Below, piece by piece: positions 1 through 52,059 of a stretch of 64,000 nt of DNA (position 1 is its first letter; each line of letters begins with the position of its first letter). Origin of the DNA: a virus (taxonomy: Duplodnaviria; Caudoviricetes); the IMG/VR virus record IMGVR_UViG_3300012665_000674, positions 1 through 64,000 of that record; one strand, 5' to 3'. A model generated the notes under the pieces. That model was not told where the DNA came from and made no database searches. It saw nothing but the letters and a program-made list of their open reading frames with translations. A program made the position numbers and the translations under genes.

Positions 1-1130
1 ACACCTTGCTCCACGACACCTTTAATCTCAAAGTGATTAACTGGATTACCGTTAATCATATAGTGACCATTCTTGTAATCAGTTATTACGCCTACCCCTC
101 TACCACCATCTTTCCAATCAGGTTGATGCGGACTTGTTTCATACTTGACTCTTTGGCCGACTTTATACTTCGGCTGTTCTGGAGCAGCACCCATTACTTT
201 GTTGGCAATTTTATTCATAATGCCTTCGTTAGTGCCTGTTGCCATTCTATCGTGGTCATCACGTTTGCGTAGTTCACTCTTAGCCATCTTGCCCTGCATC
301 TTGGCAACTTTGCTATGGAATGGTCCAGTCGTTTTGTCTGCGGTTGATTTAACAAACTCGTCACTTGCTCCACTCATTTGATTCTTAATATCTCTTGGCG
401 TGCGTGTATCGCCCATACCAAAGCGTGATTTTTCTACGGGCTTGTTTCCAGCCTCCGCCACACCTTGCTTTGCCATTCTTCTGACAACTTCGATGGCTCG
501 GTCTTTTGCGCCATATGGCATACCACGAGTAGCGTGATAAGTGTTATTATGCTCACCATTTACGAATGTAAGGTAATCACCCTGGTATTCTTTTACTTCC
601 CATTGATTACCGTCTGGTGCTTTAGCTCTATAAACAGTTTTCATTTCTGATTCATCTGGCAAGTAGCCTTCCGCCACACCTTTATTTTGAGGTGGGTTAA
701 CTGGAACAGTCTTATATACACGCTTAACAGGATCATAAACAGTTTTGCGAGGACCTTCTTTTGCTAATTGTCCTACACGCTTAACCATGTTTTGATAATC
801 ATCGCCGTAGTCTACTTCTTTACTTTCGTCAACATTGTAGTTTTCTAATTTTTTCAATATTTGACGAATCATTATACTCACATCACTAGTGCCTAATTCT
901 TCTGCACCAGCATGAAAGTCAGCTACATCCATTACTATATCACCTACTACTTCATGTCCATAACGTGTAACGATATCAGGATAGCGCATTTCTAAGCGAT
1001 TATAAAGTATGTCAGCTAAATCACTAGCACTAATGCCATTTTGACTTTCTTTCAATGCCACTGGTTTACTTGTACTGTATTTACGTTCAGGAGTAGCTTC
1101 GTTTAATATGCCTGTTAAAATATTACTCAT
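1..1130 (-). CDS. Modular putative head-internal polyprotein with GVAE repeats (3' end runs off the window; absent from the ORF track)
   Basis: Manual translation from ATG at 1130: MSNILTGILNEATPERK...ALKES...NVDES...NKGVAEG...KQGVAEA...GTNEG...KGVVEQGV; open to the window edge. Confidence 0.8.
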   Translation of the reverse strand, partial: MSNILTGILNEATPERKYSTSKPVALKESQNGISASDLADILYNRLEMRYPDIVTRYGHEVVGDIVMDVADFHAGAEELGTSDVSIMIRQILKKLENYNVDESKEVDYGDDYQNMVKRVGQLAKEGPRKTVYDPVKRVYKTVPVNPPQNKGVAEGYLPDESEMKTVYRAKAPDGNQWEVKEYQGDYLTFVNGEHNNTYHATRGMPYGAKDRAIEVVRRMAKQGVAEAGNKPVEKSRFGMGDTRTPRDIKNQMSGASDEFVKSTADKTTGPFHSKVAKMQGKMAKSELRKRDDHDRMATGTNEGIMNKIANKVMGAAPEQPKYKVGQRVKYETSPHQPDWKDGGRGVGVITDYKNGHYMINGNPVNHFEIKGVVEQG

Positions 1131-1554
1131 ATTATTATTTTTTCTTATTCTTGTTATCTAACATACCGCGCTTGTTAGCTGTAGCCCATGCAATGTTCTC
1201 TGCTTCTTTATCTGAGTGACCAAGTTTCTTTTCGCTAGACTTGACATGTTTTACCATTCTATCAACTTTTGTGCCTTCAGCCACACCTTTTTGCAAGAAA
1301 GATGGGATAGGTCTATCACCACCTAGTCTTTTAACTGATGTTGGAGTGATAGTAGGATCAACTCTTGTGGCGTATGTTTTACGTGTGCTGTCTGCGCGAC
1401 CGCGAACAGTTGGGTGACCGTCAGCACTCTTGGTAACATTTGGTACTTCGGCTTGACTCACTGTTCTTTTTGCTAGACTGTTGCTAGTGTCGGCGTACTT
1501 TTGTGTACTATGGTCACGTTGATGTTGCATTGACAATTCTTCCGCCACACCTTG
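1..1554 (-). repeat. Dispersed in-frame repeat (C/A)AAGGTGTGGC(G/T)GA(A/G) encoding (Q/K)GVAE
   Basis: Copies at 453-467, 669-683, 1276-1290 and 1540-1554, plus a truncated copy at 1-8; core AAGGTGTGGC identical in the four full copies. Confidence 0.9.
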
Positions 1555-2019
1555 AAGTTGTTTTCCCTCTAGATATTCACGGATAGTGTTTAGATAGTCA
1601 TTGGCTTTAATAATCTTTTCTTGAACCCAACCTTCAAGGCCTTCTTCTTCACTAACATCTTTAATCATATGATAAACTGTTTTGGCGTTCTTTGCCGCAC
1701 TAAACAAATCACTACGTGCCATTTCAACTTCATGGTCTAAACGACTTTGACCATGTTTAATTAAACCGGTTTTACTAGTACGGCCTTGACCAGGAACAAT
1801 GATTAAGTCTTGTTCAGAAATTTCTTCTTCATTTACTTTGCTTTCTGAAATGCTATTACCATAAGAACCTTTCTTTTTGACTTTACCCTTCATTAAGTAT
1901 TGAACTGGTTTTAGTCCAGGAACACTAACACTTTCTCGGGCTTGAGCCATCATAGGCATTGCTACGGATGAGACTGATCCGGCTGTGGTTGTAGATTCTG
2001 ATATTTCTGTAAAACGCAT
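1135..2019 (-). CDS. Putative head-internal polyprotein with two GVAE sites
   Basis: N-terminus MRFTEISES resembles a capsid-targeting sequence; internal ISE/VNE/GVAE motifs; GATAAATA upstream. Confidence 0.65.
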   Translation of the reverse strand: MRFTEISESTTTAGSVSSVAMPMMAQARESVSVPGLKPVQYLMKGKVKKKGSYGNSISESKVNEEEISEQDLIIVPGQGRTSKTGLIKHGQSRLDHEVEMARSDLFSAAKNAKTVYHMIKDVSEEEGLEGWVQEKIIKANDYLNTIREYLEGKQLQGVAEELSMQHQRDHSTQKYADTSNSLAKRTVSQAEVPNVTKSADGHPTVRGRADSTRKTYATRVDPTITPTSVKRLGGDRPIPSFLQKGVAEGTKVDRMVKHVKSSEKKLGHSDKEAENIAWATANKRGMLDNKNKKK

Positions 2020-2042: not shown

Positions 2043-2050
2043 TATTTATC
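2043..2050 (-). promoter_or_regulatory. T4-type late promoter (GATAAATA)
   Basis: TAAATA core, recurring upstream of many virion genes in this window. Confidence 0.7.
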
Positions 2051-2074: not shown

Positions 2075-4171
2075 TCAGATTTTGCCGTTTGCTTTTGCTG
2101 TTGGGGGAATTCCGGCTCTACTAGTGAGCCATCCGAATGCTTTTGCATTCTTTTTGATTGAATCAGGATGAACATCTACTGTCAATGCAGTCTTAAAACG
2201 TGGGTCGTTTTTCTCTTTTTCACTGGGAATATAACCACTTGCTTCTGACATTGATCCACGATATTGAATATCTTTACGGCCACCATATGGATTTATTGCT
2301 GGTGTTTTTTCGGCAGCAAATTGCAATGTTTCATCCTCTGCTACTTTTTTGTTTACATTAGATAATTCATATATAACTAAATCGCCATTGTCTGCCCTGA
2401 ATGCTCTATAGCCCCATGCTTTGCTGTAACGCTGTACCAATCTATCGTATAACTTAGCACGACTTTCAGGGTTTTGACCCTGTTCCACTTCTTTCCTTGC
2501 TGAAAATGTCAATCTTACAGGCTTGTACTTTTTAACATACTGTTGAATCGCAGTCAATACTGTAGCAAAGACACGCATTGCGTCACCCTCGCCCGTTACT
2601 TCTTGACTGTTGTTTCTATAAAATTCAACTTGCACGACTTCTTCACCTTCGTCATCTTGTTGATTGTTGAACATGATACTTAGTGGGCTACCATCTGGTA
2701 ATTTAGCTAATGCATCAACATCACCGTACTCACTCTTTTCCCACGTTAAGGGATATGGTTGGTCAAAGCCTTCATTAACATTATATGTAGGATCAACCTT
2801 CTGACGCTTCATGCCCTTAGGTTGATTAGGGTCCACTGGATCAATATCAGTTGTTGTCAACCCAGTCTTTTCTAAATCGTTGATGTATTGGTGTTCTAAA
2901 TCTTCATCACCAAATGCCATGATAGTACTCGGAGGTCCTTTGCCAAAGTCATGTTTACCCAACCCTTTAAGATTACTGATATGTTGACCTAACTTGTACC
3001 AGTCATAAACATCACTTACATCTACTTTAACAGTACCTGCCGGCATAGTCGGTTTGAATTCAGGGCCAGGTGGTTTACCGTTTGGATCATAATCTTCATC
3101 GATAGTAGACAATACTTTTATTCTATTAGGCGGTACCAATGAAGTGATAGCAATTTCAAATTCCGCATTTGGTGTATATTCACCGGTTAGGTTTCTAGTA
3201 TCAATCTCTATTATTGCTAGTTCTTCATCTTCATCGAATTCATCACCTAGCCAGTTCATCATAGCATCTTCTAGTGACGCTTTGTCCGGAAAGCAATATA
3301 TAGCTGACTGTTCACCTTGAATTTTACTTGAACGTGCACCAACTTGAGGACGTAAACCTGCCTTCATGATGCTATCTAAGTTACTAGTAGGAGTAACGTG
3401 ATAAACTTTTTCCGGTAGTTTGTTTTTTTCTTCTTGTATCTTAGTTGGATCTTGATACATTGTTTCGATAGTTAATAATTCACTGTGTAACTTATCTTTT
3501 AAATCATATAGTTTTGTAATGTAACCTTGACTACGCAATGCTTTGTATGCTAAATTTTCAGGACCAAACTCACCACCATTATCTAATCCTGCTTGTCTAT
3601 ATCTTCTAATTGTTTTAATTATATTTTGAACTTTACTATATTTTTTGGTCTTAAGTGCTATCTCTATAAGATTTAATAATTTTTCATATTTTGCTTTAGT
3701 GGCGGTTTGGTCAAAATTTGCTCTACGCTTAGTTGGGATTCTAAGCCATTTATCATTAAGGATACTGTACTCACCTAGACTTACTACTGGTTCTCTGGCG
3801 TCTTGTACATATAACTCTACGGGCACCCCATGTATTTTTATATCGTGGCTATCATTGTATAATGATTTTTTTGCATTGAATAGTTCTTTATATATTTCAT
3901 CATTGGGCATTTTACTCATATCAACTAATATGTGTAAATCTAAGTCTGAGTGAGGGGTATAACTATATGCGGCATTACTACCTGAAACAGTTAAGTCTTC
4001 TACATCTATTCCCTGTATGCCTAATTCTTCTAAAAAATCTCTTGCTATTAATTTAAGTTGTAATTTAACTTCCGGACGCAAGTTATTATTATTCCATAAC
4101 TTTGGATTAAGGTCATCATGGAAGGTGACTGCATCAGAAAGACGAAAGGAATCAAGTTCTTTTAAATTCAT
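2075..4171 (-). CDS. Multi-module polyprotein: Pol-beta-type nucleotidyltransferase, ADP-ribosyltransferase-like domain and further modules
   Basis: GSNAAYSYTPHSDLDLH (GS...DxD) motif; YHVT...SIMKAGLRP...IYCF...EFE...VPP ART-like motifs; start moved to MNLKELD at 4171 because the longer ORF overlaps a terminator and the upstream gene. Confidence 0.7.
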   Translation of the reverse strand: MNLKELDSFRLSDAVTFHDDLNPKLWNNNNLRPEVKLQLKLIARDFLEELGIQGIDVEDLTVSGSNAAYSYTPHSDLDLHILVDMSKMPNDEIYKELFNAKKSLYNDSHDIKIHGVPVELYVQDAREPVVSLGEYSILNDKWLRIPTKRRANFDQTATKAKYEKLLNLIEIALKTKKYSKVQNIIKTIRRYRQAGLDNGGEFGPENLAYKALRSQGYITKLYDLKDKLHSELLTIETMYQDPTKIQEEKNKLPEKVYHVTPTSNLDSIMKAGLRPQVGARSSKIQGEQSAIYCFPDKASLEDAMMNWLGDEFDEDEELAIIEIDTRNLTGEYTPNAEFEIAITSLVPPNRIKVLSTIDEDYDPNGKPPGPEFKPTMPAGTVKVDVSDVYDWYKLGQHISNLKGLGKHDFGKGPPSTIMAFGDEDLEHQYINDLEKTGLTTTDIDPVDPNQPKGMKRQKVDPTYNVNEGFDQPYPLTWEKSEYGDVDALAKLPDGSPLSIMFNNQQDDEGEEVVQVEFYRNNSQEVTGEGDAMRVFATVLTAIQQYVKKYKPVRLTFSARKEVEQGQNPESRAKLYDRLVQRYSKAWGYRAFRADNGDLVIYELSNVNKKVAEDETLQFAAEKTPAINPYGGRKDIQYRGSMSEASGYIPSEKEKNDPRFKTALTVDVHPDSIKKNAKAFGWLTSRAGIPPTAKANGKI

Positions 4172-4175
4172 ATAG

Positions 4176-4183
4176 TATTTATC
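4176..4183 (-). promoter_or_regulatory. Late promoter GATAAATA, 4 nt upstream of ATG
   Basis: GATAAATACTATATG on the minus strand. Confidence 0.7.
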
Positions 4184-4184
4184 A

Positions 4185-4208
4185 AACAAAAGCCCCTTTC
4201 GGGGCTTT
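4185..4208 (-). terminator. Intrinsic terminator
   Basis: AAAGCCCC-GAAA-GGGGCTTTTGTTT directly after the stop of 4212..5117. Confidence 0.8.
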
Positions 4209-4211
4209 ATT

Positions 4212-5117
4212 TTACTGAACTGATATAGACTTAACTTCGTTACCGTCTTTATCAATTAGCTTTAATCCAGCTAACTGTTGTTGCTGTTCTAAGAACATAG
4301 GTCCAATTGTTTTCATCAAGTGATCTTGATTTTCTTGACAGAAAACATATGAACCTGAGTGACGTAATAATACACGTTTGTCAACCCAGATACGGCCGCC
4401 CATGTCACGCCAGTTTTCACAGAATGTCCAGTCTTCACTGTAGTAACGATTTTGACGAACTGCGGTATCAAAGTATGTTTTCAAATGTACATCATACTTT
4501 GGATCTAATCCAATGTCGTTCTTGTACTGCTTAACTGCAGGATGAGTTTTCATCTTTTCAAATACATGTTTCTTCATTAACAAGAATCCTGTACCTGCTT
4601 TACTTACTTCTTGTAAGCCGTCTGCGCCTTCTTCTGCACCTTCAAATCCGTTAACTACCCACTTGATTGGCATAGTCTTCATTGGGTACAATCCGCCGAT
4701 AACGTCAACGTCACGGTTCAACAATACTAACAAGTGCCATGGTTCCCAACCAATGTCTGCGTCAACAAAGAACAAGTGTGTTGCGTCTGGCATGTCCAAG
4801 AACTTTGCAGTCAATGTATTACGGGCACGACTGATTAGTGACTCGTTAACCATTGTTTCTAATGTCCAATCAATGCCAAGCTGACGGGCAGTGTTTGCCC
4901 ACTTGATAAATGACATGAATGTACTTTCAGTTAACATACCACCGTAACATGGCATAGCAATGTGTACACGGGTAGTTTTTAGAAAGTCTACGTTAACTTG
5001 AACTTGACCCTGTTGCGGGGCTTGTTGTTGCTCTTGTGCCGCTTGTTCGGCAATTTCCTGCACAGCTTCTACTGGTACAGTTTTTTCTTCAGTTTGTTTG
5101 GTTTTCTTAGTTGCCAT
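4212..5117 (-). CDS. GT-A fold glycosyltransferase-like protein
   Basis: IAMPCYGG, SLISRARN, FFVDADI (DxD), GTGFLL, SEDWTFC and a distal His. Confidence 0.7.
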   Translation of the reverse strand: MATKKTKQTEEKTVPVEAVQEIAEQAAQEQQQAPQQGQVQVNVDFLKTTRVHIAMPCYGGMLTESTFMSFIKWANTARQLGIDWTLETMVNESLISRARNTLTAKFLDMPDATHLFFVDADIGWEPWHLLVLLNRDVDVIGGLYPMKTMPIKWVVNGFEGAEEGADGLQEVSKAGTGFLLMKKHVFEKMKTHPAVKQYKNDIGLDPKYDVHLKTYFDTAVRQNRYYSEDWTFCENWRDMGGRIWVDKRVLLRHSGSYVFCQENQDHLMKTIGPMFLEQQQQLAGLKLIDKDGNEVKSISVQ

Positions 5118-5167
5118 TTGATCCTCTTAAATGATATAATTATTTACATCAGTTTGAGGTGTACGAA

Positions 5168-8100
5168 TTATTTTTCTTCTATATAATCAGCACTTTCGGT
5201 TACCTTCTCTTGTTCATATGTTCCTGGGAAGGGTAAACCTAAAGAGCCACCGGTTTCTTTTTCAGTTATTGCGGCAATACCAGTTCCTATGCCTGCACTA
5301 GCCAATGTATACTTTACAGTATCACTCCAGCTTTTACCATTGATACGTGAAACAACAGTAGGAATAACAGTGTTTAATATTGCTTGTAGTGCTAGGTTAG
5401 TTTGTGAAGGACTTAGGCCCATTCGTTGTGCTGTAGTTAATACACCACCTGCTAATAATGCACCAATAGTAGTAACTATGCCACCCTGTATATATGGATT
5501 TTCTTTACCTTTTTTAAAGATATCAATTAACTTGCTACGAACTTTAGGATCATCTGTTTTTTGTAATAGGTCACGTGCTTGGTCAACGTAGTTATCTACT
5601 TTTTCTTTATGAATATTATTGACTACAGGTTTGTAAAAACTTATAACTGTGTCAGTTATTGGATCAACTTTTTTATCTTCTGCATAATTTACGCTTTCAC
5701 CACCTCCACCGCCGTCGCCACCACCTTCACCGGATTCTCCACCACCATAATAGGCATAGCCCGGGAAGAAATAACCTCTCAGTGATCTTGAAGATTTTTT
5801 CTTTTTCTTTTTCTTGCCTTCATCTAACTTAACTTTGGCTCTCACTAAAGATTCGTAAATCTTAGCTTTCTGTTCAGGAGTAGCGTGTGGCAACAATACT
5901 TTAACTCTCTCAATATATTCTTTAATAGCTTGTTGTTGCTGGATGCCCATGTTCTTTGCTGTTACATCCATAAGGTGTTCTACCCAATCTGAGCCTAAAG
6001 TGTTAGTATCAAAAGCATTATACCATGTTTTAAGTTTATCTTGTTCGCTTGCGTTAGGGTTTGACAATACATTTCTAAGTTGTGTGAAACTGATACCAGT
6101 TCCACCTTTGTTTGGATCACGTTCTGTTCTAACTGTTTCAAAGTCTACTTGATTCTGTGTACCACCGTACTTAGCAATAGATGCTGGATCTTTCATACGC
6201 TTTTCTAAACTATCCATCCAGTTTTTCATACCTTCATAACGGTCATCACCTACTAATAAGATGACTTTGTTATATGGACTATTCGCTGGAAGAACAAGTT
6301 CTTTCTCAATCTTCTTCATTGGAGTACCTTGAGGATTCCAAACTTGAATGTTGTTTGCATACTTAGGATACAATTTACGCAGTGTTCTTACTTTATCACC
6401 GGGCGGGATAGGATCGTCTGTTGGATTAGTTACAGGACTAACATAGATATAAGGATCACCACCTACACTTTTAGCAGTATCAATTGTTTGTTGAATTAAT
6501 TGTTGATGACCTTTATGTCCAACGAATGATCCAATGGTTACAACAGCAGGCTTAACACGGTTGCTACCTTCTGTTGGTTTTTTGTTCATTGCTTGTTTTG
6601 CAGCCATCTTGTTTTGCATATCAGGGCTAGTAACTTTAGCAAGTGTACCACTAGGCATATTGATAACAAGACCTTCAATCATATCACCCAATTGATCTTT
6701 GCCTGCAATAGGACTACTAATAATAGCATTGCTCAATGCTTGTCGTGCTTTACTTAATATAAGTTTTGCTTTTTGTTTGTCAGGAGTGTCTCCGCGTTGT
6801 GCAACTGCACTAGTAAGTGCTTCAGCATTCTTAACAATTGGATTAACAATTTTACTAACATCAATACCCTTATGTGATAGAGTATTGTTTATCATTTTAA
6901 TATTAGGTGTACTATCTTTGATTAACGCTTGCTTAATCTTTTGACTGTCAGGTCTTGTTTCACCTGTGCTATATTGCTTAACACTTATTGGAACAAGAGT
7001 CATTGACTTTCCTAATTTCTTAGGATCATAAGGAATGTTTACGAATTTATAGCCACCGTCTTCTTGTTGTGCCATTGGATTGAATAACATCTCTGCTTGC
7101 ACAATTGTATCAGATGGAATATCTTTCATAAAATCAGCATTAACAATTGTAGCTAATGCTTTATCGTAATTCTGTGTACGTGCTAACTGTTCTTCTGACT
7201 GACCCTGACTTCTTCCATAGATTTCAAAATCACCAATATTATCTGCTGTCATAGGCTTGTCAACACGACTGGTCATGAAGAATGGCTCACCTTCAGGTGT
7301 TTTACCAAATCTTATACCAGCACCATCAACTTTCAAGTTGATTGGAACACCTTGAAACTTGCCACCGTCTTGTGCAATTTCTTTTGCAAAGTTAATGAAG
7401 TCTACATCCTTCATCTCAGTACTTGATCCGGGATTGTATATGTGTTGAATACCTTTGCGTTTATAACTTGGAGCAGCCTCATCAAGTGTGTTCTTTGCCA
7501 TTTGTTTGACAATATTTTTTCTTGTTTCAACACCTTCATCTGTGCCAGTCATCTTATATGATTTGCGATATGTATCAAGCATTTGATCCAAATTAGCTGG
7601 CTTCTCTATCTTCAACGTATTCAACATCGTGTTGATAGCAGTAGTCTTTTCTGCAATATCTTTATCAGGATTGTTTTTGTACATTCCTTGAGCACCAGGA
7701 CCAATAGTCTTTTGCAAGAATCCGTTCAACACTTGTTGTTTTTCTTCTGGACTCATCAACGTATTCATAACATTCAATAAGCCAGTGAACGACCAAAATT
7801 GTTTTTGTAATGCTTGTGCTTGTTTAGGATTTAAACGTTGTCCCAAAATTGTTGAAAAAATCTGTCCAATGTTTTGTTGATATCCTGCAGTGGGTGCCTC
7901 ACGCATTACAGGCAATCCGTTGATTACTAATGGCTTACCATTATCATTTAAAACTGGTTCATACTTTGCACGTAACCCGCCGCCTTCTTTACTAGACACG
8001 GCAAAACTATACATGTTATCTGTTGTTGGTTCGTCAACTTCTTGACGTAGTTTTCCGCGACCTTTCATTTTACGCAATAAGAAATCCTTGCGTGTTAATG

Positions 8101-8701
8101 CTGTAAATGCTTGAATCAACCACTTGTGGAATACACCCTTAACACCTGCTTGCAAATCTTCCCATGAACTACTATGACTGAATTTAGCCCAATCAGTTGG
8201 CAAATCATTTTCAAACTCTACAAATTCAAAATCTATTTGTACCTTTACCGGTGGGTCTTGTAATTCAAACAGTCCAGAGAACTGTTCATTACCACGTTGA
8301 AAACCTAAAAACTTAGCAGGACCAATTTGTTTGTTTGTGTATGCAGTTAAGAATTGTTGTAAATCAGGTTCTTTTGTTTTGTCAACCATTGTATCAATGT
8401 CACCAACTGTTGGTTTCTTCTCTACAAAAGTTTCATCAGGAATACCCTTGACATTAAAGAAGTGTAAACTACTTCCACTTAAGAACTCACCACTTGCTAA
8501 TACTTTTGGATTCCATAATGGTTGCTTATACATCTTAGCATAAGCCTGATTGATTGCATTTAGTAGCTCATTTAATTTAGGAACCATGTAGTTACGATTT
8601 GTAACCTTTAGGTCTAAGTGTTGTGCTTCCTGTGATCCTATGGATAGGTTGCCGCCTTCAAGTAGGCATTTACGGCTTTCAAGTATTGCGGCTATTTTCA
8701 T
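5168..8701 (-). CDS. 1177-aa polyprotein: Pol-beta-like NTase, KxDG ligase-like domain, HxGH cytidylyltransferase-family domain and C-terminal modules
   Basis: SGSS...VGDIDT; LKVDGAG...QAEMLF...EGLV...AKV; TIGSFVGHKGH...VGDDR...ISFTQLR; modules split by ILE/LLE/LDE/IKE/ITE/VTE motifs. Confidence 0.7.
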   Translation of the reverse strand: MKIAAILESRKCLLEGGNLSIGSQEAQHLDLKVTNRNYMVPKLNELLNAINQAYAKMYKQPLWNPKVLASGEFLSGSSLHFFNVKGIPDETFVEKKPTVGDIDTMVDKTKEPDLQQFLTAYTNKQIGPAKFLGFQRGNEQFSGLFELQDPPVKVQIDFEFVEFENDLPTDWAKFSHSSSWEDLQAGVKGVFHKWLIQAFTALTRKDFLLRKMKGRGKLRQEVDEPTTDNMYSFAVSSKEGGGLRAKYEPVLNDNGKPLVINGLPVMREAPTAGYQQNIGQIFSTILGQRLNPKQAQALQKQFWSFTGLLNVMNTLMSPEEKQQVLNGFLQKTIGPGAQGMYKNNPDKDIAEKTTAINTMLNTLKIEKPANLDQMLDTYRKSYKMTGTDEGVETRKNIVKQMAKNTLDEAAPSYKRKGIQHIYNPGSSTEMKDVDFINFAKEIAQDGGKFQGVPINLKVDGAGIRFGKTPEGEPFFMTSRVDKPMTADNIGDFEIYGRSQGQSEEQLARTQNYDKALATIVNADFMKDIPSDTIVQAEMLFNPMAQQEDGGYKFVNIPYDPKKLGKSMTLVPISVKQYSTGETRPDSQKIKQALIKDSTPNIKMINNTLSHKGIDVSKIVNPIVKNAEALTSAVAQRGDTPDKQKAKLILSKARQALSNAIISSPIAGKDQLGDMIEGLVINMPSGTLAKVTSPDMQNKMAAKQAMNKKPTEGSNRVKPAVVTIGSFVGHKGHQQLIQQTIDTAKSVGGDPYIYVSPVTNPTDDPIPPGDKVRTLRKLYPKYANNIQVWNPQGTPMKKIEKELVLPANSPYNKVILLVGDDRYEGMKNWMDSLEKRMKDPASIAKYGGTQNQVDFETVRTERDPNKGGTGISFTQLRNVLSNPNASEQDKLKTWYNAFDTNTLGSDWVEHLMDVTAKNMGIQQQQAIKEYIERVKVLLPHATPEQKAKIYESLVRAKVKLDEGKKKKKKKSSRSLRGYFFPGYAYYGGGESGEGGGDGGGGGESVNYAEDKKVDPITDTVISFYKPVVNNIHKEKVDNYVDQARDLLQKTDDPKVRSKLIDIFKKGKENPYIQGGIVTTIGALLAGGVLTTAQRMGLSPSQTNLALQAILNTVIPTVVSRINGKSWSDTVKYTLASAGIGTGIAAITEKETGGSLGLPFPGTYEQEKVTESADYIEEK

Positions 8702-8702
8702 T

Positions 8703-9065
8703 TTAGTAGCTCAATTTTACGAAATTGACTAATCCTTGTTGGAAGTCTTCTACCTTAGCCCGCATATAAACAAAATTACCTTGTATATTGGTATAAACAC
8801 TTGCGTTTGCATTTTGCTCACTATTAGCTTCTAATGTATACACATTAAACCAATCTGTACTATTAGGATTTGATGCTAAACTTGCTTGGATGACAATATT
8901 TCCAGTACAATTAGTTAAATTAATATTAACTGTTTGCAGGTCTCTGTTTCCTAAATAATAGGCAGCGGCTGGTTGTGTATTGCCTGTTACAGTGTAGGGT
9001 GCCCCATTACCAGGATTCTGATAAGCAGTTTGAGGTAACAGTACAAGTGTAGTAGTTTGGCTCAT
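8703..9065 (-). CDS. Hypothetical beta-rich virion protein
   Basis: 120-aa ORF; resembles the C-terminal half of 60361..61122 (IQAS/IQGS, DW(F/Y), IQG..Y.R). Confidence 0.55.
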   Translation of the reverse strand: MSQTTTLVLLPQTAYQNPGNGAPYTVTGNTQPAAAYYLGNRDLQTVNINLTNCTGNIVIQASLASNPNSTDWFNVYTLEANSEQNANASVYTNIQGNFVYMRAKVEDFQQGLVNFVKLSY

Positions 9066-9232
9066 TATGCTCGTACCACTTCTACGACAACTGCGTCACC
9101 GACTAGTTCTTGTGCTACCTGCTCTAATGCTTGTTGAATGTCATGACCAGCGATACCGGAAACGTCTGTTTCACTGTCCTTGACGATTTTACTAAATTTA
9201 ATGACGATAACGTCCTCTACAATCTGTGCCAT
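9065..9232 (-). CDS. Small hypothetical protein (55 aa; absent from the ORF track)
   Basis: MAQIVEDVIVIKFSKIVKD...VVVEVVRA*; GGAG SD and GATAAATA upstream; TAATG coupling to the next gene. Confidence 0.75.
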   Translation of the reverse strand: MAQIVEDVIVIKFSKIVKDSETDVSGIAGHDIQQALEQVAQELVGDAVVVEVVRA

Positions 9233-9264
9233 GAAAAATACTCCATTATAGAGTATTTATCATT

Positions 9265-12241: not shown

Positions 12242-13033
12242 TTATTTAGATTGAAGAATGCTTGTAACAATTTGTTCATCGATTATATCAGGAACAAATG
12301 GTTTAAGCAATATTATTTGGTCTCCGTACTGACTAGTACCGTAGACGGGCATACCCTGTCCTGCAATTTTTAATTGCACATATGGTTGTGTTTTTGGTTT
12401 TATAGATACTTCAAATGTTTTTCCCGAAATAGTAGTAAATTCAAATGTAGTTCCTGTTATCAAATCAAGCACTGACATTGCAATATTGCAAACCAAATCG
12501 TGGTTCTTTCTTTCAAACTTAAGATCAGGTTGAATTCTAAATTCAACCATTAATGAAGCACCGTCGATTGCATTATCAATTCTAATTTGATTCCCATTTT
12601 GAACACCTTTCGGTATTTGAATTTTTACCAAGTGTGTATTAGTTGGGGTTTGTAATTTCAATGTTTGTTCTTCACCGAAATATACTTGTTGTAATGTTGT
12701 TTGAACACTAGTTCTAAAAACTTGTTGTTGTGGTCTTTGTTGTCTATTTTGATGTTGCTGAAACATATCAAAGAAATCAGCAAATCCACCTGAACTAAAT
12801 GGGAAACCACCGGGTGTACCTTGATTAAAATGAAACCCTTGTGGCATAGGGTTATCATATTGTTGTCGTTGATTTGGATCGCTTAATATACGATATGCTT
12901 CTTCGATCTTTTGAAACGTGGAAGTATCACCACCCTTATCCGGGTGATGTTTACTTGCCAATCTGCGATATGCTTTTTTGATATCATCAGGTGTAGCGTT
13001 TTTATCAACACCTAAAGTTACGTAATGGTCCAT
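12242..13033 (-). CDS. DnaJ/CbpA-type co-chaperone
   Basis: J-domain with HPDKGG, G/F-rich linker and DnaJ C-terminal domain; no Zn finger. Confidence 0.9.
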   Translation of the reverse strand: MDHYVTLGVDKNATPDDIKKAYRRLASKHHPDKGGDTSTFQKIEEAYRILSDPNQRQQYDNPMPQGFHFNQGTPGGFPFSSGGFADFFDMFQQHQNRQQRPQQQVFRTSVQTTLQQVYFGEEQTLKLQTPTNTHLVKIQIPKGVQNGNQIRIDNAIDGASLMVEFRIQPDLKFERKNHDLVCNIAMSVLDLITGTTFEFTTISGKTFEVSIKPKTQPYVQLKIAGQGMPVYGTSQYGDQIILLKPFVPDIIDEQIVTSILQSK

Positions 13034-13074: not shown

Positions 13075-13686
13075 TTAAGATTTTCCTTCAATCTTTTCTT
13101 TTGTGCGTCCATAGGCTGCGATACCAAGAACTGCACCCATTGCAATATGGTACAAGCCTGCACCTTGCAATGTTAAGGGTTGCCACTGACTAGTCACGTT
13201 ACCGTGTGTTAGTGCTTGTAGTAAACTCCATAATATAGGAAATACAACAAAGTCCATAGTACAAGTTAGCATATAGATCCAACCCATAACTGGACGCCAT
13301 TTTTTATTAATCCAATCTGTGTTGTCGTTAGCTACTAATACGTCTGCACCACTGGCTGCATTAGTAGGAGCCGCACCTGTCAATACTGGTTGACTACCGG
13401 TTGATTGATTAATATTTGTTGTACTTCCAAATCCTGTTGTGGGCGGTACTGCACCGAATCCCGGACTTGATGTACCAAAATTACTGGGCCCGAATACGCC
13501 TGTCGAAGGTAAGCCAGATGTTGAAGGCCCGGTGAATATGTTGGTTGTTGCATTTATATCTCCGAATGAGCTACCTTGAGGGAATTGAGCAATGCTAGGA
13601 TCACTTGCTAATGCTTCGTGATGGTCATCGTTAGTTGCTAATGGATTTTCAAATCCTGATTTTTTGGGTAATATTGTTGTTGCCAT
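13075..13686 (-). CDS. Holin-like membrane protein (3TM holin family) with low-complexity N-terminus
   Basis: KKWRPVMGW followed by TM helices and LGIAAYGRTKEK C-terminus. Confidence 0.6.
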   Translation of the reverse strand: MATTILPKKSGFENPLATNDDHHEALASDPSIAQFPQGSSFGDINATTNIFTGPSTSGLPSTGVFGPSNFGTSSPGFGAVPPTTGFGSTTNINQSTGSQPVLTGAAPTNAASGADVLVANDNTDWINKKWRPVMGWIYMLTCTMDFVVFPILWSLLQALTHGNVTSQWQPLTLQGAGLYHIAMGAVLGIAAYGRTKEKIEGKS

Positions 13687-13687
13687 A

Positions 13688-14236
13688 TTATAATCCTGCC
13701 ATAGATTTAAAGGCTCTTAACTCAGCATCTTGTTCTGGTAAAACTTTAACTGGTTCAAGCCCTGCTTTCTGACGCATTTCGTTTAATTCTTCTTCACTTT
13801 CTTCTTCTACACGATATTCATGTGGGCTTATAGTGATAACTTGTTTTAACTGTTCAACGTCAGGTTCATATTCTTCTTCATTAACTTCAACTGTCCATTC
13901 GTCTAAATCCATGTCAGTTAATGTTTTTAAATCTTCTAAAAGTTCTACAATTCTTTCGGGTACTTTACTTCTGCGTTTCATTTCTACAAATACTAAATGC
14001 TGCCCTGGCGCTAATTGACCATCACTTAAACTAGCATCAAGTATCCAGTCATACCCACGTTCAAACCAATCAACTAAATCATTTCCTGCGGCTTCACTCG
14101 TAACAATGAATGCTAGTGTTACAATCTCGCTATCTCTACCCATTTTTGCCGCATATTCATCTACAGAAACGTTAGGTTCTATTTGATCTACCATATCCAG
14201 ATAATCTAAGCCTTCATTAATAATTCTTTTATTCAT
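13688..14236 (-). CDS. Hypothetical protein (possible head component)
   Basis: 182-aa acidic ORF; N-terminal IINE motif. Confidence 0.6.
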   Translation of the reverse strand: MNKRIINEGLDYLDMVDQIEPNVSVDEYAAKMGRDSEIVTLAFIVTSEAAGNDLVDWFERGYDWILDASLSDGQLAPGQHLVFVEMKRRSKVPERIVELLEDLKTLTDMDLDEWTVEVNEEEYEPDVEQLKQVITISPHEYRVEEESEEELNEMRQKAGLEPVKVLPEQDAELRAFKSMAGL

Positions 14237-38904: not shown

Positions 38905-39024
38905 TTTATTTTTCCTTTATGTAAAATTATGAGGTTTACCACCTAAAATGCATACTATTATTTATTAAAAAAAATAAAAAAAGCGGTTTAGCCGTGCCTT
39001 CGAAGGTTCCTAACTAAATACTAT

Positions 39025-43913: not shown

Positions 43914-43929
43914 TATTTACTGATAAATA
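43914..43929. promoter_or_regulatory. Back-to-back divergent late promoters
   Basis: GTAAATA on minus (43914-43920) and GATAAATA on plus (43922-43929). Confidence 0.65.
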
Positions 43930-52007: not shown

Positions 52008-52059
52008 AAGTGTATTTCTTCACGATATACACTTATTTATCACAAACCCGATCTAATCG

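Follow-up and report, generated by a model that had tools for sequence, protein, structure and literature searches.

Two long genes of an uncultured giant T4-like phage string predicted enzymes together as cassettes joined at short motifs resembling head protease sites

Two long genes of an uncultured virus raise the question of why several predicted nucleotide-transfer enzymes would be strung together in single polypeptides, and whether these proteins might be cut apart, packaged into the virus particle and delivered into the host. The genes, called A and B here, reside in a fragment of a jumbo myovirus (72.6 kb, about 21% complete), of which the first 64,000 nucleotides (the window) were analyzed. 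A first-pass annotation, made from the sequence alone, proposed that both genes have capsid-targeting-like starts (MNLKELD and MKIAAILES), that the domain boundaries mostly coincide with hydrophobic-x-E motifs, and that the products form an injected toolkit acting before phage gene expression. The observation underlying this proposal is confirmed by our analysis, whereas the interpretation is only partly supported; within it, the polyprotein reading gained strong independent support.

Architecture of genes A and B

Both open reading frames exist on the minus strand. Gene A spans 2075..4255 when read from a TTG codon, but the ATG at 4171 yields 698 amino acids and is the start used by the relatives. 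Each motif noted in the first-pass annotation is present where it had been placed. In A these are KIQE (244-247), TIDE (356-359), NVNE (464-467), KVAE (609-612) and SMSE (640-643), and in B these are TLDE (405-408), AIKE (925-928), KLDE (958-961), AITE (1144-1147) and KVTE (1166-1169). The KVDG sequence lies at nucleotides 7322-7333 and HKGH at 6506-6517. The catalytic motifs are mostly on the folds expected. The features are as follows.

2075..4171 (-). Gene A, a 698-aa cassette polyprotein (M1 to M6).
3431..4171 (-). M1 (residues 1-247), a Pol-beta NTase with a helical C-terminal half (ANT/KNT-like), starting MNLKE and then L.
3095..3430 (-). M2 (residues 248-359), a minimal ART-like cassette (Arr/Tpt1-like) flanked by KIQE247 and TIDE359.
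2771..3094 (-). M3 (residues 360-467), a highly conserved module of unknown fold ending in NVNE467.
2336..2770 (-). M4 (residues 468-612), a GNAT-like fold (DUF6934-like) ending in KVAE612.
2243..2335 (-). M5 (residues 613-643), a short linker peptide ending in SMSE643.
2078..2242 (-). M6 (residues 644-698), a conserved 55-aa C-terminal piece after the last site.
5168..8701 (-). Gene B, a 1177-aa polyprotein with a constant core (1-~925/961) plus variable C-terminal cassettes.
8657..8701 (-). B residues 1-15, a propeptide-like start ending in LLE15 and followed by GGN.
7478..8656 (-). B residues 16-408, a probable Pol-beta-like NTase domain ending in TLDE408.
6581..7477 (-). B residues 409-707, an ATP-dependent RNA-ligase-type adenylyltransferase domain (KVDG 457-460).
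5918..6580 (-). B residues 708-928, an HxGH (HIGH-superfamily) nucleotidyltransferase that is NMNAT/PPAT-like (HKGH 729-732), ending in AIKE928.
5261..5917 (-). B residues 929-1147, a helix to KLDE961, a Lys/Gly-rich linker and then a hydrophobic helical module (1008-1135), ending in AITE1147.
4212..5117 (-). The gene between B and A (301 aa, phrog_1574), whose first 41 residues are variable and hold VQE21 and IAE24. Its sequence, judged by inspection alone, is suggestive of a glycosyltransferase.
1135..2019 (-). A neighboring gene with GVAE160 and GVAE248, likely another cassette protein. Its conserved C-terminal piece (q248-294) in the relatives L003 and L004 starts at GVAE248.
3..1130 (-). 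A neighboring gene, running off the window, with GVAE154 and GVAE226. The match to the relative L002 ends at q155.
9254..9261 (-). A GATAAATA box 21 nt before a small ORF (9065-9232), which leads into 8703-9065, B, the 4212-5117 gene and A.
4176..4183 (-). A GATAAATA box 4 nt before the ATG of gene A, which is too close for an ordinary leader.
2043..2050 (-). A GATAAATA box 23 nt before the gene at 1135-2019.

Predicted domains of gene A

A search for relatives of A recovered more than 2354 metagenomic sequences at E<=0.001 among 8000 scored candidates. The assignment of M1 as a Pol-beta NTase is supported by a match to phrog_36119 (E 6e-45), by weak Pfam NTP_transf_2 and MTPAP-like hits, and by invariant G64, S65, D76 and D78. 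Foldseek matches the predicted structure (pLDDT 70-88) to AAD(9) (6xz0, E 2.6e-3) and CdnE, and the VIA structure comparison matches it to 2rff (Z 7.0). The residues LKE5 are present in 67 of 72 anchored N-termini.

The ART-like assignment of M2 rests on three weak but concordant lines of evidence. These are profile hits to the Tpt1 NAD lobe (E 0.001) and DarT (E 0.0098), Atlas features that give Arr-ms at 0.92, and an Atlas structure match to PTS_2-RNA at TM 0.62. Our AF2 model is poor in this region (pLDDT 27-48). The cassette is absent from the 98-99% identical relatives P0003-P0006, and it has 1086 representatives at E<=1e-3, many of which are stand-alone proteins of 100-130 amino acids.

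M3 is found in 116 of 119 relatives and carries many near-invariant residues, but it models poorly (pLDDT 26-56) and gave no family hit. M4 matches phrog_16075 and phrog_6387 and has a weak DUF6934 hit. Foldseek matches M4 to the ICL2 GNAT-like domain (E 2.5e-4) and to many GNATs, and VIA gives Z 7-8.6 for GNATs, although its top hits are to the RNase E DNase-I-like subdomain (Z 9.6). M5 is found in 98 of 119 relatives. M6 is found in 119 of 119 relatives, occurs as one copy in each of 5 records, and has no match in cultured phages.

Predicted domains of gene B

The corresponding search with B recovered 502 relatives at E<=0.001 among 7996 scored candidates. The N-terminal piece is modeled with pLDDT below 50, and [LIVM]xE at LLE15 is kept in 68% of 120 sequences and is present in 95 of 97 N-termini that hold the EGGN anchor. 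MKIAAILES, highlighted in the first-pass annotation, is less conserved than this neighboring site.

The Pol-beta-like NTase identity of residues 16-408 should be considered a lead only. The region matches phrog_19290 (E 1e-22), is modeled with pLDDT of about 90, and has invariant S75-G76-S77, G100-D101-x-D103, D157 and E159. Atlas neighbors are named Nucleotidyltransferase (0.96) and carry PF01909 in 33% of members (0.94), but there was no PDB match among the top 50, which places Z below 8.1. Stand-alone homologs occur in Vibrio, Campylobacter and Xanthomonas phages.

In contrast, the RNA-ligase fold bearing KVDG is supported by VIA matches to 5cot (Z 10.5), 1s68 (Z 9.4), 1xdn (Z 9.3) and T4 Rnl1 9do4 (Z 8.9), by Foldseek matches to Trl1-LIG, Rnl3 and Naegleria Rnl, and by invariant K457, D459, G460, E537, E676, G677 and K689. 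The NMNAT/PPAT-like fold bearing HKGH is supported by matches to phrog_3041 and phrog_395 (cytidyltransferase), by VIA matches to NadM 2qjt (Z 12.8), NMNAT 1f9a (Z 12.1) and PPAT 4nah (Z 11.7), and by a profile hit to RibF (E 3e-4). Residues H729, G731, H732 and R876 are invariant. The C-terminal region has breakpoints at q955-961, 985, 1008 and 1135 and is modeled with pLDDT 26-57, and its hydrophobic helical module recurs in another gene of the relative L006.

Cassette junctions coincide with a short motif

The number of [LIVM]xE sites is neither enriched nor depleted overall, with 12 observed against 11.6 expected in A and 15 against 14.7 in B, but their placement is not as expected by chance. 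BLAST breakpoints in A against 119 relatives cluster at q240-256, 349-359, 464-471, 610-622 and 636-644, which are the five sites named above. HSP ends lie within 2 residues of a site 3-4 times more often than chance (421 of 1632 against 128.9 expected, and 461 of 1821 against 114.6 expected), with the mode at offset 0.

The metagenomic relatives of A (over 2,300) and B (over 500) shuffle cassettes, with the junctions falling after [LIVM]-x-E. Within the family of A, the start of M4 is preceded by [LIVM]xE in 119 of 119 occurrences (17 different tetrapeptides), and the start of M6 in 117 of 117 (28 tetrapeptides). For M5 the count is 39 of 66, with 24 more having the E one residue later, but for M3 the motif is present in only 17 of 100 cases, where the junction is with M1. 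The ends of M3 and M5 are followed by 22 and 12 different next 5-mers, respectively. Cassettes in relatives are bracketed in the same manner, wherein DUF6321 (970-1046) lies between SVEE963 and SVEE1053, LysM follows KITE932, and SLT follows ALQE1036.

In B, TLDE408 is kept as [LIVM]xE in 95% of 120 sequences, and the low-confidence linkers 1-17 and 386-409 of the AlphaFold model hold LLE15 and TLDE408. Likewise, the modeled M4 domain of A (470-607) is bounded by E467 and E612. However, AIKE928 and KLDE961 sit near cassette breakpoints but inside predicted helices, and there is no such site between the ligase and HxGH domains.

A candidate protease, a capsid site and an upstream box

Peptidase_S77, the family of the T4 gp21 prohead protease, is present in 3 of 4 near-complete relatives (E about 1e-28; genomes of 360 kb), next to a gp23-type capsid gene. 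Their capsid proteins align L[SA]E followed by SSAG with LTE65 followed by A of T4 gp23, the position of the T4 maturation cut, and T4 gp21 cuts after L/I-X-E. The fragment that carries the window and the 99%-complete relative G002 gave no Peptidase_S77 or Gp23 match.

A T4-late-promoter-like RATAAATA box stands before the tail sheath, virion and fiber-like genes, and also before the operon holding B and A. Of 22 such boxes, 18 lie 0-80 nt before a same-strand start, where the chance fraction is 0.045. However, the box also precedes the DnaJ gene.

The genomic setting is less supportive of packaging. The cluster lies beside DnaJ and a Clp-type ATPase and far from the capsid genes, and in the relative G001 it sits at about 114 kb, against about 285 kb for the protease. 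No MuF or portal-type anchoring domain was found in the domain search, and no close cultured relative was found. In favor of the effector reading, B is accessory, as it is absent from four complete relatives, and cargo typical of delivered effectors occurs in the relatives, including SLT lysozyme with LysM, HD, amidoligase, DUF6321 and GP88. Other Pfam accessions among the relatives correspond to deaminase, GNAT and ParB domains, and ParB also appears in a BFVD entry.

Comparison with known systems

T4 Alt and the internal proteins IPI-III are packaged in the head, processed by gp21 and injected. The protease family occurs in the lineage described here, and the motif is likewise hydrophobic-x-Glu. 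Alt is trimmed at ITE-6 and LTE-619, which removes a 63-aa C-terminal piece, and both A and B have a short N-terminal piece before a site, with A also having the 55-aa M6 piece beyond its last site. An ART-type enzyme is among the predicted cargo, although it is Arr/Tpt1-like (H-type) rather than of the R-S-E Alt type (PMC5512222). T4 packages single-enzyme proteins from separate genes, whereas here several enzymes are chained in one precursor, with internal sites that double as cassette borders. M6 has no detectable similarity to cultured-phage proteins.

Polyvalent proteins of phages and conjugative elements (Iyer et al. 2017, PMC5512222) hold 2-15 conflict-related domains in one polypeptide, including ART, GNAT and Pol-beta NTase, and they are proposed to travel with the DNA, with processing into parts envisaged. 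Those proteins are linked to MuF, portal, relaxase or N4-vRNAP contexts, and self-processing by zincin-like peptidase domains is proposed. Such domains were not found here, and release would instead be by the capsid maturation protease at generic sites. RNA ligases were said never to associate with the 2H domains of polyvalent proteins, whereas B contains a predicted RNA ligase.

Jumbo phages also carry repair pairs composed of RlaP (an RNA-ligase-associated Pol-beta NTase) and an ATP-grasp RNA ligase, which are predicted to restore lost nucleotides before sealing cleaved tRNA (PMC7824862). B similarly couples a probable Pol-beta-type NTase with a predicted Rnl-type RNA ligase, and the same gene order occurs as an operon in Xanthomonas phage BUDD. 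However, the Pfam RlaP model finds nothing in the contig even at E<=10, and in B the NTase, the ligase and an extra HIGH-type adenylyltransferase are fused. No kinase or phosphatase end-healing domain was found in B.

Finally, many head proteins of the phiKZ-like giant phages SPN3US, phiKZ and 201phi2-1, among them processed ejection and inner-body proteins, are cut after Glu at a three-residue motif, with multiple sites per protein, and are ejected into the host. Their motif has a small residue at P3 (S/A/G-x-E or A-x-E) and the protease belongs to a different family (S80). No enzyme-cassette polyproteins were described in the accounts of these phages that we consulted.

Interpretation

The explanation we favor, with a probability of roughly 0.55, is that A and B are effector polyproteins of a T4-related jumbo phage, each a chain of autonomous enzyme cassettes joined by short linkers ending in [L/I/V/M]-x-Glu, the motif cut by T4-type (gp21, Peptidase_S77) prohead proteases. 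This would make them a T4-style version of polyvalent proteins, here carrying an RNA-repair-type module. In this view, the precursors would be made late and enter the prohead, where the maturation protease would cut them at the junctions, and would also remove a short N-terminal piece (MNLKE in A, the piece ending in LLE15 in B) and the C-terminal 55 amino acids of A. The freed enzymes would stay in the head and enter the host with the DNA, as T4 Alt and the internal proteins do. Our analysis establishes the domain folds and motifs at the levels of support given above, the exchange of cassettes at the motif, and the protease and capsid site in relatives, whereas cleavage, virion location, packaging, injection, enzymatic activities and substrates are inferred.

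We cannot rule out the possibility, although we consider it unlikely, that these are ordinary cytoplasmic multidomain enzymes, arising as gene fusions of an RNA-repair or modification pathway and of defense-related enzymes, that are never cut or packaged. The x-x-E junction would then be a favored linker end or a by-product of how cassettes recombine. Homologs of the B domains exist as four adjacent, separate genes beside a primase/helicase in phage BUDD, which indicates that the chemistry does not require packaging, and the N-terminal domain exists as a stand-alone gene in Vibrio and Campylobacter phages. The DnaJ and Clp neighbors, the lack of a detected anchoring domain and the chance-level total of motifs are also consistent with this view. 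However, the motif is kept at every M4 and M6 junction counted, with many different residues at P4 and P2 and with different upstream modules, which points to selection on the peptide itself. It also equals the specificity of the protease family encoded by the relatives and the site in their capsid protein, and both ends of A and B mimic those of T4 Alt.

Less likely still, the head protease might cut the precursors, but the products could serve head assembly as core, scaffold-like or DNA-organizing proteins, or the fragments could leave the head, such that the enzymes are not injected effectors. In T4, most core proteins are cut into pieces that leave the head, and M3, M5, M6 and the C-terminal module of B have no enzyme-like fold and model poorly. 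However, the enzyme domains keep their catalytic residues across hundreds of sequences, and B is not an assembly essential given its absence from four complete relatives. Moreover, fragments of 25-60 kDa are larger than the peptides described as leaving the T4 head. That the long ORFs are assembly or gene-calling artifacts joining unrelated genes is very improbable, as nothing was found to favor it and the frames are uninterrupted both here and in 119 listed relatives of each family, from many samples and contigs of up to 364 kb.

The predicted cargo of this phage would include, from A, an ANT-like Pol-beta NTase, an Arr/Tpt1-like minimal ART, an unknown conserved module and a GNAT-like module. 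From B, it would include a Pol-beta-like NTase (residues 16-408) and an RNA ligase that stays fused to an NMNAT/PPAT-like adenylyltransferase (residues 409-928/961), along with the hydrophobic helical C-terminal module. Among the roles proposed in the first-pass annotation, which were RNA or tRNA end repair, manipulation of NAD+ or nucleotide signals against host defenses, and modification of host proteins, RNA-end repair fits B best. Together the B products look like an RNA-end healing and sealing kit that could reverse tRNA or RNA cleavage by host defenses. Because the inferred cut sites are also the cassette borders, modules could be swapped without harming their neighbors, and this would explain the large combinatorial diversity of the families.

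Genomic context of the putative polyprotein genes

The window comprises the first 64 kb of a 72.6-kb viral contig that is estimated to be 21% complete. Its tail sheath is closest, at about 45% identity, to those of the jumbo myoviruses Atu_ph07, Phosso and PA5oct, and relatives of the two genes of interest lie on contigs of 343-367 kb, one of them with terminal repeats. A megablast search of the region against 50,697 phage records found nothing, and no cultured relative was found. Gene A is the ORF 2075..4255, whose ATG at 4171 gives 698 aa and is the start shared by the relatives. Gene B is 5168..8701 and codes for 1177 aa. The first-pass annotation had placed ten x-x-E motifs, a KVDG motif and an HKGH motif in these genes, and all of them sit exactly where it placed them. 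Its observation holds, whereas its interpretation of the products as enzymes packaged in the virion is only partly supported. The neighboring features are as follows.

3-1130, minus strand, gene with GVAE sites at residues 154 and 226
1135-2019, minus strand, gene with GVAE sites at residues 160 and 248
4212-5117, minus strand, gene for a 301-aa protein (phrog_1574) between B and A
8703-9065, gene preceding B
9065-9232, minus strand, small acidic ORF of about 55 aa
9962-12226 and 12242-13033, minus strand, genes for a full-length Clp-type AAA+ ATPase (phrog_4871, E 4e-230) and a DnaJ-like protein

The Clp and DnaJ genes lie directly upstream of the polyprotein cluster and are syntenic in five related loci. 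A phage-encoded chaperone pair beside putative head cargo is unusual. The first 41 residues of the 301-aa protein are not conserved in relatives and hold VQE21 and IAE24. This might be another propeptide-bearing head protein. By eye alone, it looks like a GT-A glycosyltransferase.

Predicted modules of gene A

The M1 module (residues 1-247). M1 matches phrog_36119 at E 6e-45 and has the characteristics of a Pol-beta superfamily NTase. The expected G[GS], DxD strand and third carboxylate are represented by G64-S65, D76-x-D78 and E119, which are invariant in 51 sequences. Pfam hits to NTP_transf_2 and the MTPAP palm are below the cut-off. In the AlphaFold model, the pLDDT of M1 is 70-88, and the module resembles the spectinomycin adenylyltransferase AAD(9) and CdnE (Foldseek E 2.6e-3) and a minimal NTase (2rff), although the latter VIA match is only Z 7.0.

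The M2 module (residues 248-359). M2 belongs to a family of roughly 100 aa with 1086 representatives at E<=1e-3, many of which are stand-alone proteins of 100-130 aa. A profile of 72 members was built from 71 of the 150 listed hits, all of them short ones, plus M2 itself. In this set, H258, F294 and E339 (A numbering) are conserved in at least 90% of sequences, and are candidates for the His of strand 1, the aromatic residue and the acidic residue of the last strand expected for H-type members of the ART superfamily (Arr, Tpt1-KptA and DarT-like). The profile hits the NAD-binding lobe of Tpt1 (E 0.001) and DarT (E 0.0098), but only over about 24 residues. Pfam gives DUF7002 in 5 of 72 members, and Tox-ART-HYE1 and PARP in one each. 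The ESM Atlas puts M2 next to Arr-type rifampin ADP-ribosyltransferases (0.92), and the Atlas model of the protein aligns with RNA 2'-phosphotransferase (Tpt1; TM 0.62, 87 residues). Among the Atlas structure matches, M2-like domains also occur fused to a GNAT and to a domain that Pfam calls Tad6 in other viral proteins. However, our own AlphaFold model is poor in this region (pLDDT 27-48). An attempt to deepen the M2 alignment inside full-length A misplaced all 57 short sequences and was discarded, and as a result the A model has poor M2 and M3. We therefore call M2 a minimal ART-like domain, with its membership in the superfamily remaining tentative.

The M3 module (residues 360-467; positions 2771-3094). 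M3 has many near-invariant residues across 51 aligned sequences, yet it is modeled as largely disordered (pLDDT 26-56) and has no recognizable family match. It is an unexplained conserved element.

The M4 module (residues 468-612). M4 is GNAT-like. Foldseek gives E 2.5e-4 to the GNAT-like domain of ICL2, and many acetyltransferases match at Z 7-8.6. However, the top VIA rows, at Z 9.6, are the DNase-I-like subdomain of RNase E. A search with M3-M4 gave only weak hits, to hypothetical proteins of KVP40-like vibriophages in an uninformative context.

The M5 and M6 modules. M5 is a 31-aa linker peptide and M6 is a conserved 55-aa tail. A search for M6 among cultured phages returned no match.

Predicted domains of gene B

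The model of B is good, with a mean pLDDT of 78.9. Conservation was assessed in 61 sequences chosen from the 120 relatives listed.

The N-terminal domain (residues 16-408). Residues 20-385 are confidently folded, and the Pol-beta signature-like residues S75-G76-S77, D101-x-D103 and D157/E159 are invariant. The nearest Atlas clusters are viral "nucleotidyltransferase" clusters, which are leads only. No solved-structure match appeared among the top 50 matches, whose lowest Z was 8.1, but this says little because the list was filled by the other two domains. There is no Pfam hit, and a profile-profile comparison of the B family against the A family showed no relation between the two NTase-like domains (probability 0.2). 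The RlaP model (PF10127) has no match in the contig at E<=10, although it does ring in 3 of the 14 control genomes.

The RNA ligase-type domain. Residues 410-702 match the adenylyltransferase domain of ATP-dependent RNA ligases, including Naegleria Rnl at Z 10.5 (rmsd 3.7, 196 aligned), T4 Rnl2 at Z 9.4, REL1 at Z 9.3 and T4 Rnl1 at Z 8.9, whereas DNA ligases score lower, at Z 8.3. Foldseek also finds Trl1-LIG and Rnl3. The motif I residues K457, D459 and G460 are invariant, as are E537, E676-G677 and K689, which we read as belonging to motifs III, IV and V.

The HxGH domain. Residues 716-918 match NMN/NaMN adenylyltransferases and PPAT, which are nucleotidyltransferases of the HIGH superfamily with a Rossmann-like fold, including NadM at Z 12.8 (rmsd 3.1, 156 aligned), NMNAT at Z 12.1 and PPAT at Z 11.7. 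H729-x-G731-H732 are invariant, and S871, T873 and R876 of the C-terminal ISxTxxR-type motif are invariant or nearly so. These matches do not resolve the substrate.

The C-terminal region. The last 200 residues comprise a helix, a Lys/Gly-rich stretch and a hydrophobic helical module, all of low confidence.

Single-sequence searches of the PDB gave only marginal hits. Profile searches with two alignments gave only RibF for the HxGH motif (alignment A1) and nothing (alignment A2), and NCBIfam gave only sub-threshold FAD-synthetase hits.

In Xanthomonas phage BUDD, four consecutive genes beside a primase/helicase code, in order, for a homolog of the N-domain (GDIDIQVD), an unknown protein, a homolog of the ligase domain (KLDG, EGVVI) and an HNGH nucleotidyltransferase. 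The three predicted activities therefore form a conserved unit. A Pol-beta NTase working with an RNA ligase is the published RlaP-ligase logic for restoring and sealing cleaved tRNA (section 3.4.9 of PMC7824862). The B core (NTase, ligase and HxGH domains) is absent from four complete genomes of the group (G001-G004), and at the syntenic place two related loci, L003 and L004, have about 1.4 kb of other sequence.

Cassettes and junctions

Both genes belong to large families, with at least 2354 proteins for A among 8000 scored candidates and at least 502 for B among 7996, each at E<=0.001. The best 120 of each were studied. Against 119 relatives, homology to A breaks at q240-256, 349-359, 464-471, 610-622 and 636-644, which are the five sites named in the first-pass annotation. 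The closest relatives, at 98-99% identity, lack M2 altogether, and in others M2 sits near the C-terminus. Other family members carry inserted cassettes, including SLT lysozyme with LysM, HD, amidoligase, DUF5661, DUF6321 and GP88, and further Pfam accessions correspond to deaminase, GNAT, ParB, zeta-toxin/AAA and Pol-beta NTase.

The [LIVM]-x-E motif occurs near both termini and at the internal junctions, and is conserved in the families. The start of M4 is preceded by it in 119 of 119 occurrences, with 17 different tetrapeptides, and the start of M6 in 117 of 117, with 28 tetrapeptides. For M5 the count is 39 of 66, with 24 more where the Glu lies one residue later. Many of these contexts are variants of the same upstream module, and so the number of independent junction types is smaller. 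The ends of M3 and M5 are nevertheless followed by 22 and 12 different next 5-mers. A cruder test on all pairwise BLAST breakpoints gives 3-4-fold enrichment within 2 residues of a site, with the mode exactly at the Glu. However, the M1|M3 junction fits in only 17 of 100 cases, and the rest read ITDE, PIND or KEFE, so M1 and M3 may stay joined in many relatives. Furthermore, the overall number of such tripeptides is what composition predicts.

The two genes at 1135-2019 and 3-1130 show the same behavior. Homology breakpoints in relatives coincide with their repeated GVAE sites, so they are probably more cassette proteins of the same system.

Proposed link to a prohead protease

Three of four near-complete relatives encode a Peptidase_S77 (T4 gp21) protease next to a gp23-type capsid gene, and one of them carries an 81%-identical gene A. 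The relative G002 and the window's own 21%-complete contig gave no match. Aligned with T4 gp23, the relatives' capsid proteins place L[SA]E|SSAG at T4's LTE65|A, where the T4 propeptide is 65 residues (section 2.5 of PMC9026906), and gp21 cuts after L/I-X-E. T4 Alt loses six residues at ITE-6 and 63 residues at LTE-619 (PMC5694885). A has MNLKE|L in 67 of the 72 N-termini that held our anchor (48 did not hold it), as well as a 55-aa piece after its last site. B has ...LLE15|GGN in 95 of 97 anchored N-termini (23 were not anchored).

In G001, which is the record of L003, two small ORFs (139 and 124 aa) at 201018-201194 and 13510-13689 match only positions 2-61 of the Gp23 Pfam model. This is the N-terminal propeptide part of the capsid protein and might be a shared targeting segment. 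A weak, sub-threshold Gp23-model match (E 7e-4) lies outside the window at 66026-66190 of contig G000, in a 495-aa frame interrupted by one TAA.

A putative expression signal

The exact T4 late promoter TATAAATA is under-represented, with 3 observed against 10 expected. Its variant RATAAATA (often GATAAATAC) is not enriched in number (22 against 17.5) but is in position. Of the 22 boxes, 18 lie 0-80 nt before a same-strand start, where the chance fraction is 0.045, and these sit 4-54 nt before the gene starts. Examples are at 38959-38966, 43922-43929, 52034-52041 and 9254-9261. The boxes stand before the tail sheath gene, a virion structural gene and a fiber-like gene, before the small ORF that opens the run 9065-9232, 8703-9065, B, 4212-5117 and A, before gene 1135-2019, and 4 nt before the ATG of A. 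The small ORF lies between the GATAAATA box and gene 8703-9065, and its stop overlaps the start of that gene. One box also precedes the DnaJ gene, and that the box is a late promoter is an inference from T4.

Interpretation and comparison with known systems

The simplest account is that A and B are precursors cut by the head protease and carried in the virion. In the families, the cut sites would serve as cassette borders. Our data establish that the motifs are present, that cassettes are exchanged at them, and that a protease and a matching capsid site occur in relatives. In contrast, cleavage, packaging in the absence of virion proteomics, entry into the host, and all enzyme activities and substrates are inferred. 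Against this account, the cluster lies by DnaJ and Clp and far from the capsid genes, the B-type domains are separate genes near replication genes in BUDD, and two of the B sites lie in predicted helices. The absence of B from four complete relatives fits an accessory, conflict-related role.

The proposal is a T4-style variant of the polyvalent proteins (Iyer et al. 2017, PMC5512222). Like those proteins, A and B carry several conflict-related catalytic domains in one polypeptide, with NTase, ART-like and GNAT-like domains in A and NTase-like, RNA-ligase and HIGH NTase domains in B. However, no Pfam, PHROG or NCBIfam hit to a packaging or transfer anchor (MuF, portal, relaxase, vRNAP) or to a processing peptidase domain was found in A, B or their neighbors. 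The proposal would also extend the Alt/internal-protein paradigm to polyproteins. Literature searches for a prior description of such polyproteins found only the polyvalent-protein and T4/giant-phage maturation literature, although earlier listings of these families in supplementary tables cannot be excluded.

A broader hypothesis, which we consider possible but somewhat less likely than not, is that T4-related jumbo phages of fresh and other waters carry a plug-and-play delivery system in which the three-residue sites of the capsid maturation protease double as universal cassette borders. Any enzyme could then be spliced into a carrier polyprotein, loaded into the head, cut free, and injected ahead of phage gene expression. 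Candidate enzymes seen in the families include an RNA-repair kit, minimal ARTs, GNATs, deaminases, ParB, HD hydrolases and lysozymes. Thousands of natural variants would then form a combinatorial library of pre-made counter-defense enzymes, including the first virion-delivered RNA ligase-based repair module.

If the main reading is right, it extends the T4 paradigm from single proteins to modular polyproteins, and gives a simple rule, hydrophobic-x-Glu at cassette borders, for predicting packaged cargo in uncultured giant phages from sequence alone. This rule could also guide the design of T4-type protein-delivery vectors. The more than 2,300 A-type and 500 B-type proteins scored, both of which are lower bounds, would represent a very large, undescribed reservoir of candidate injected enzymes. 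It would also show that RNA repair can be delivered ready-made, before any phage gene is expressed, which bears on how phages escape anticodon nucleases and other abortive-infection systems.
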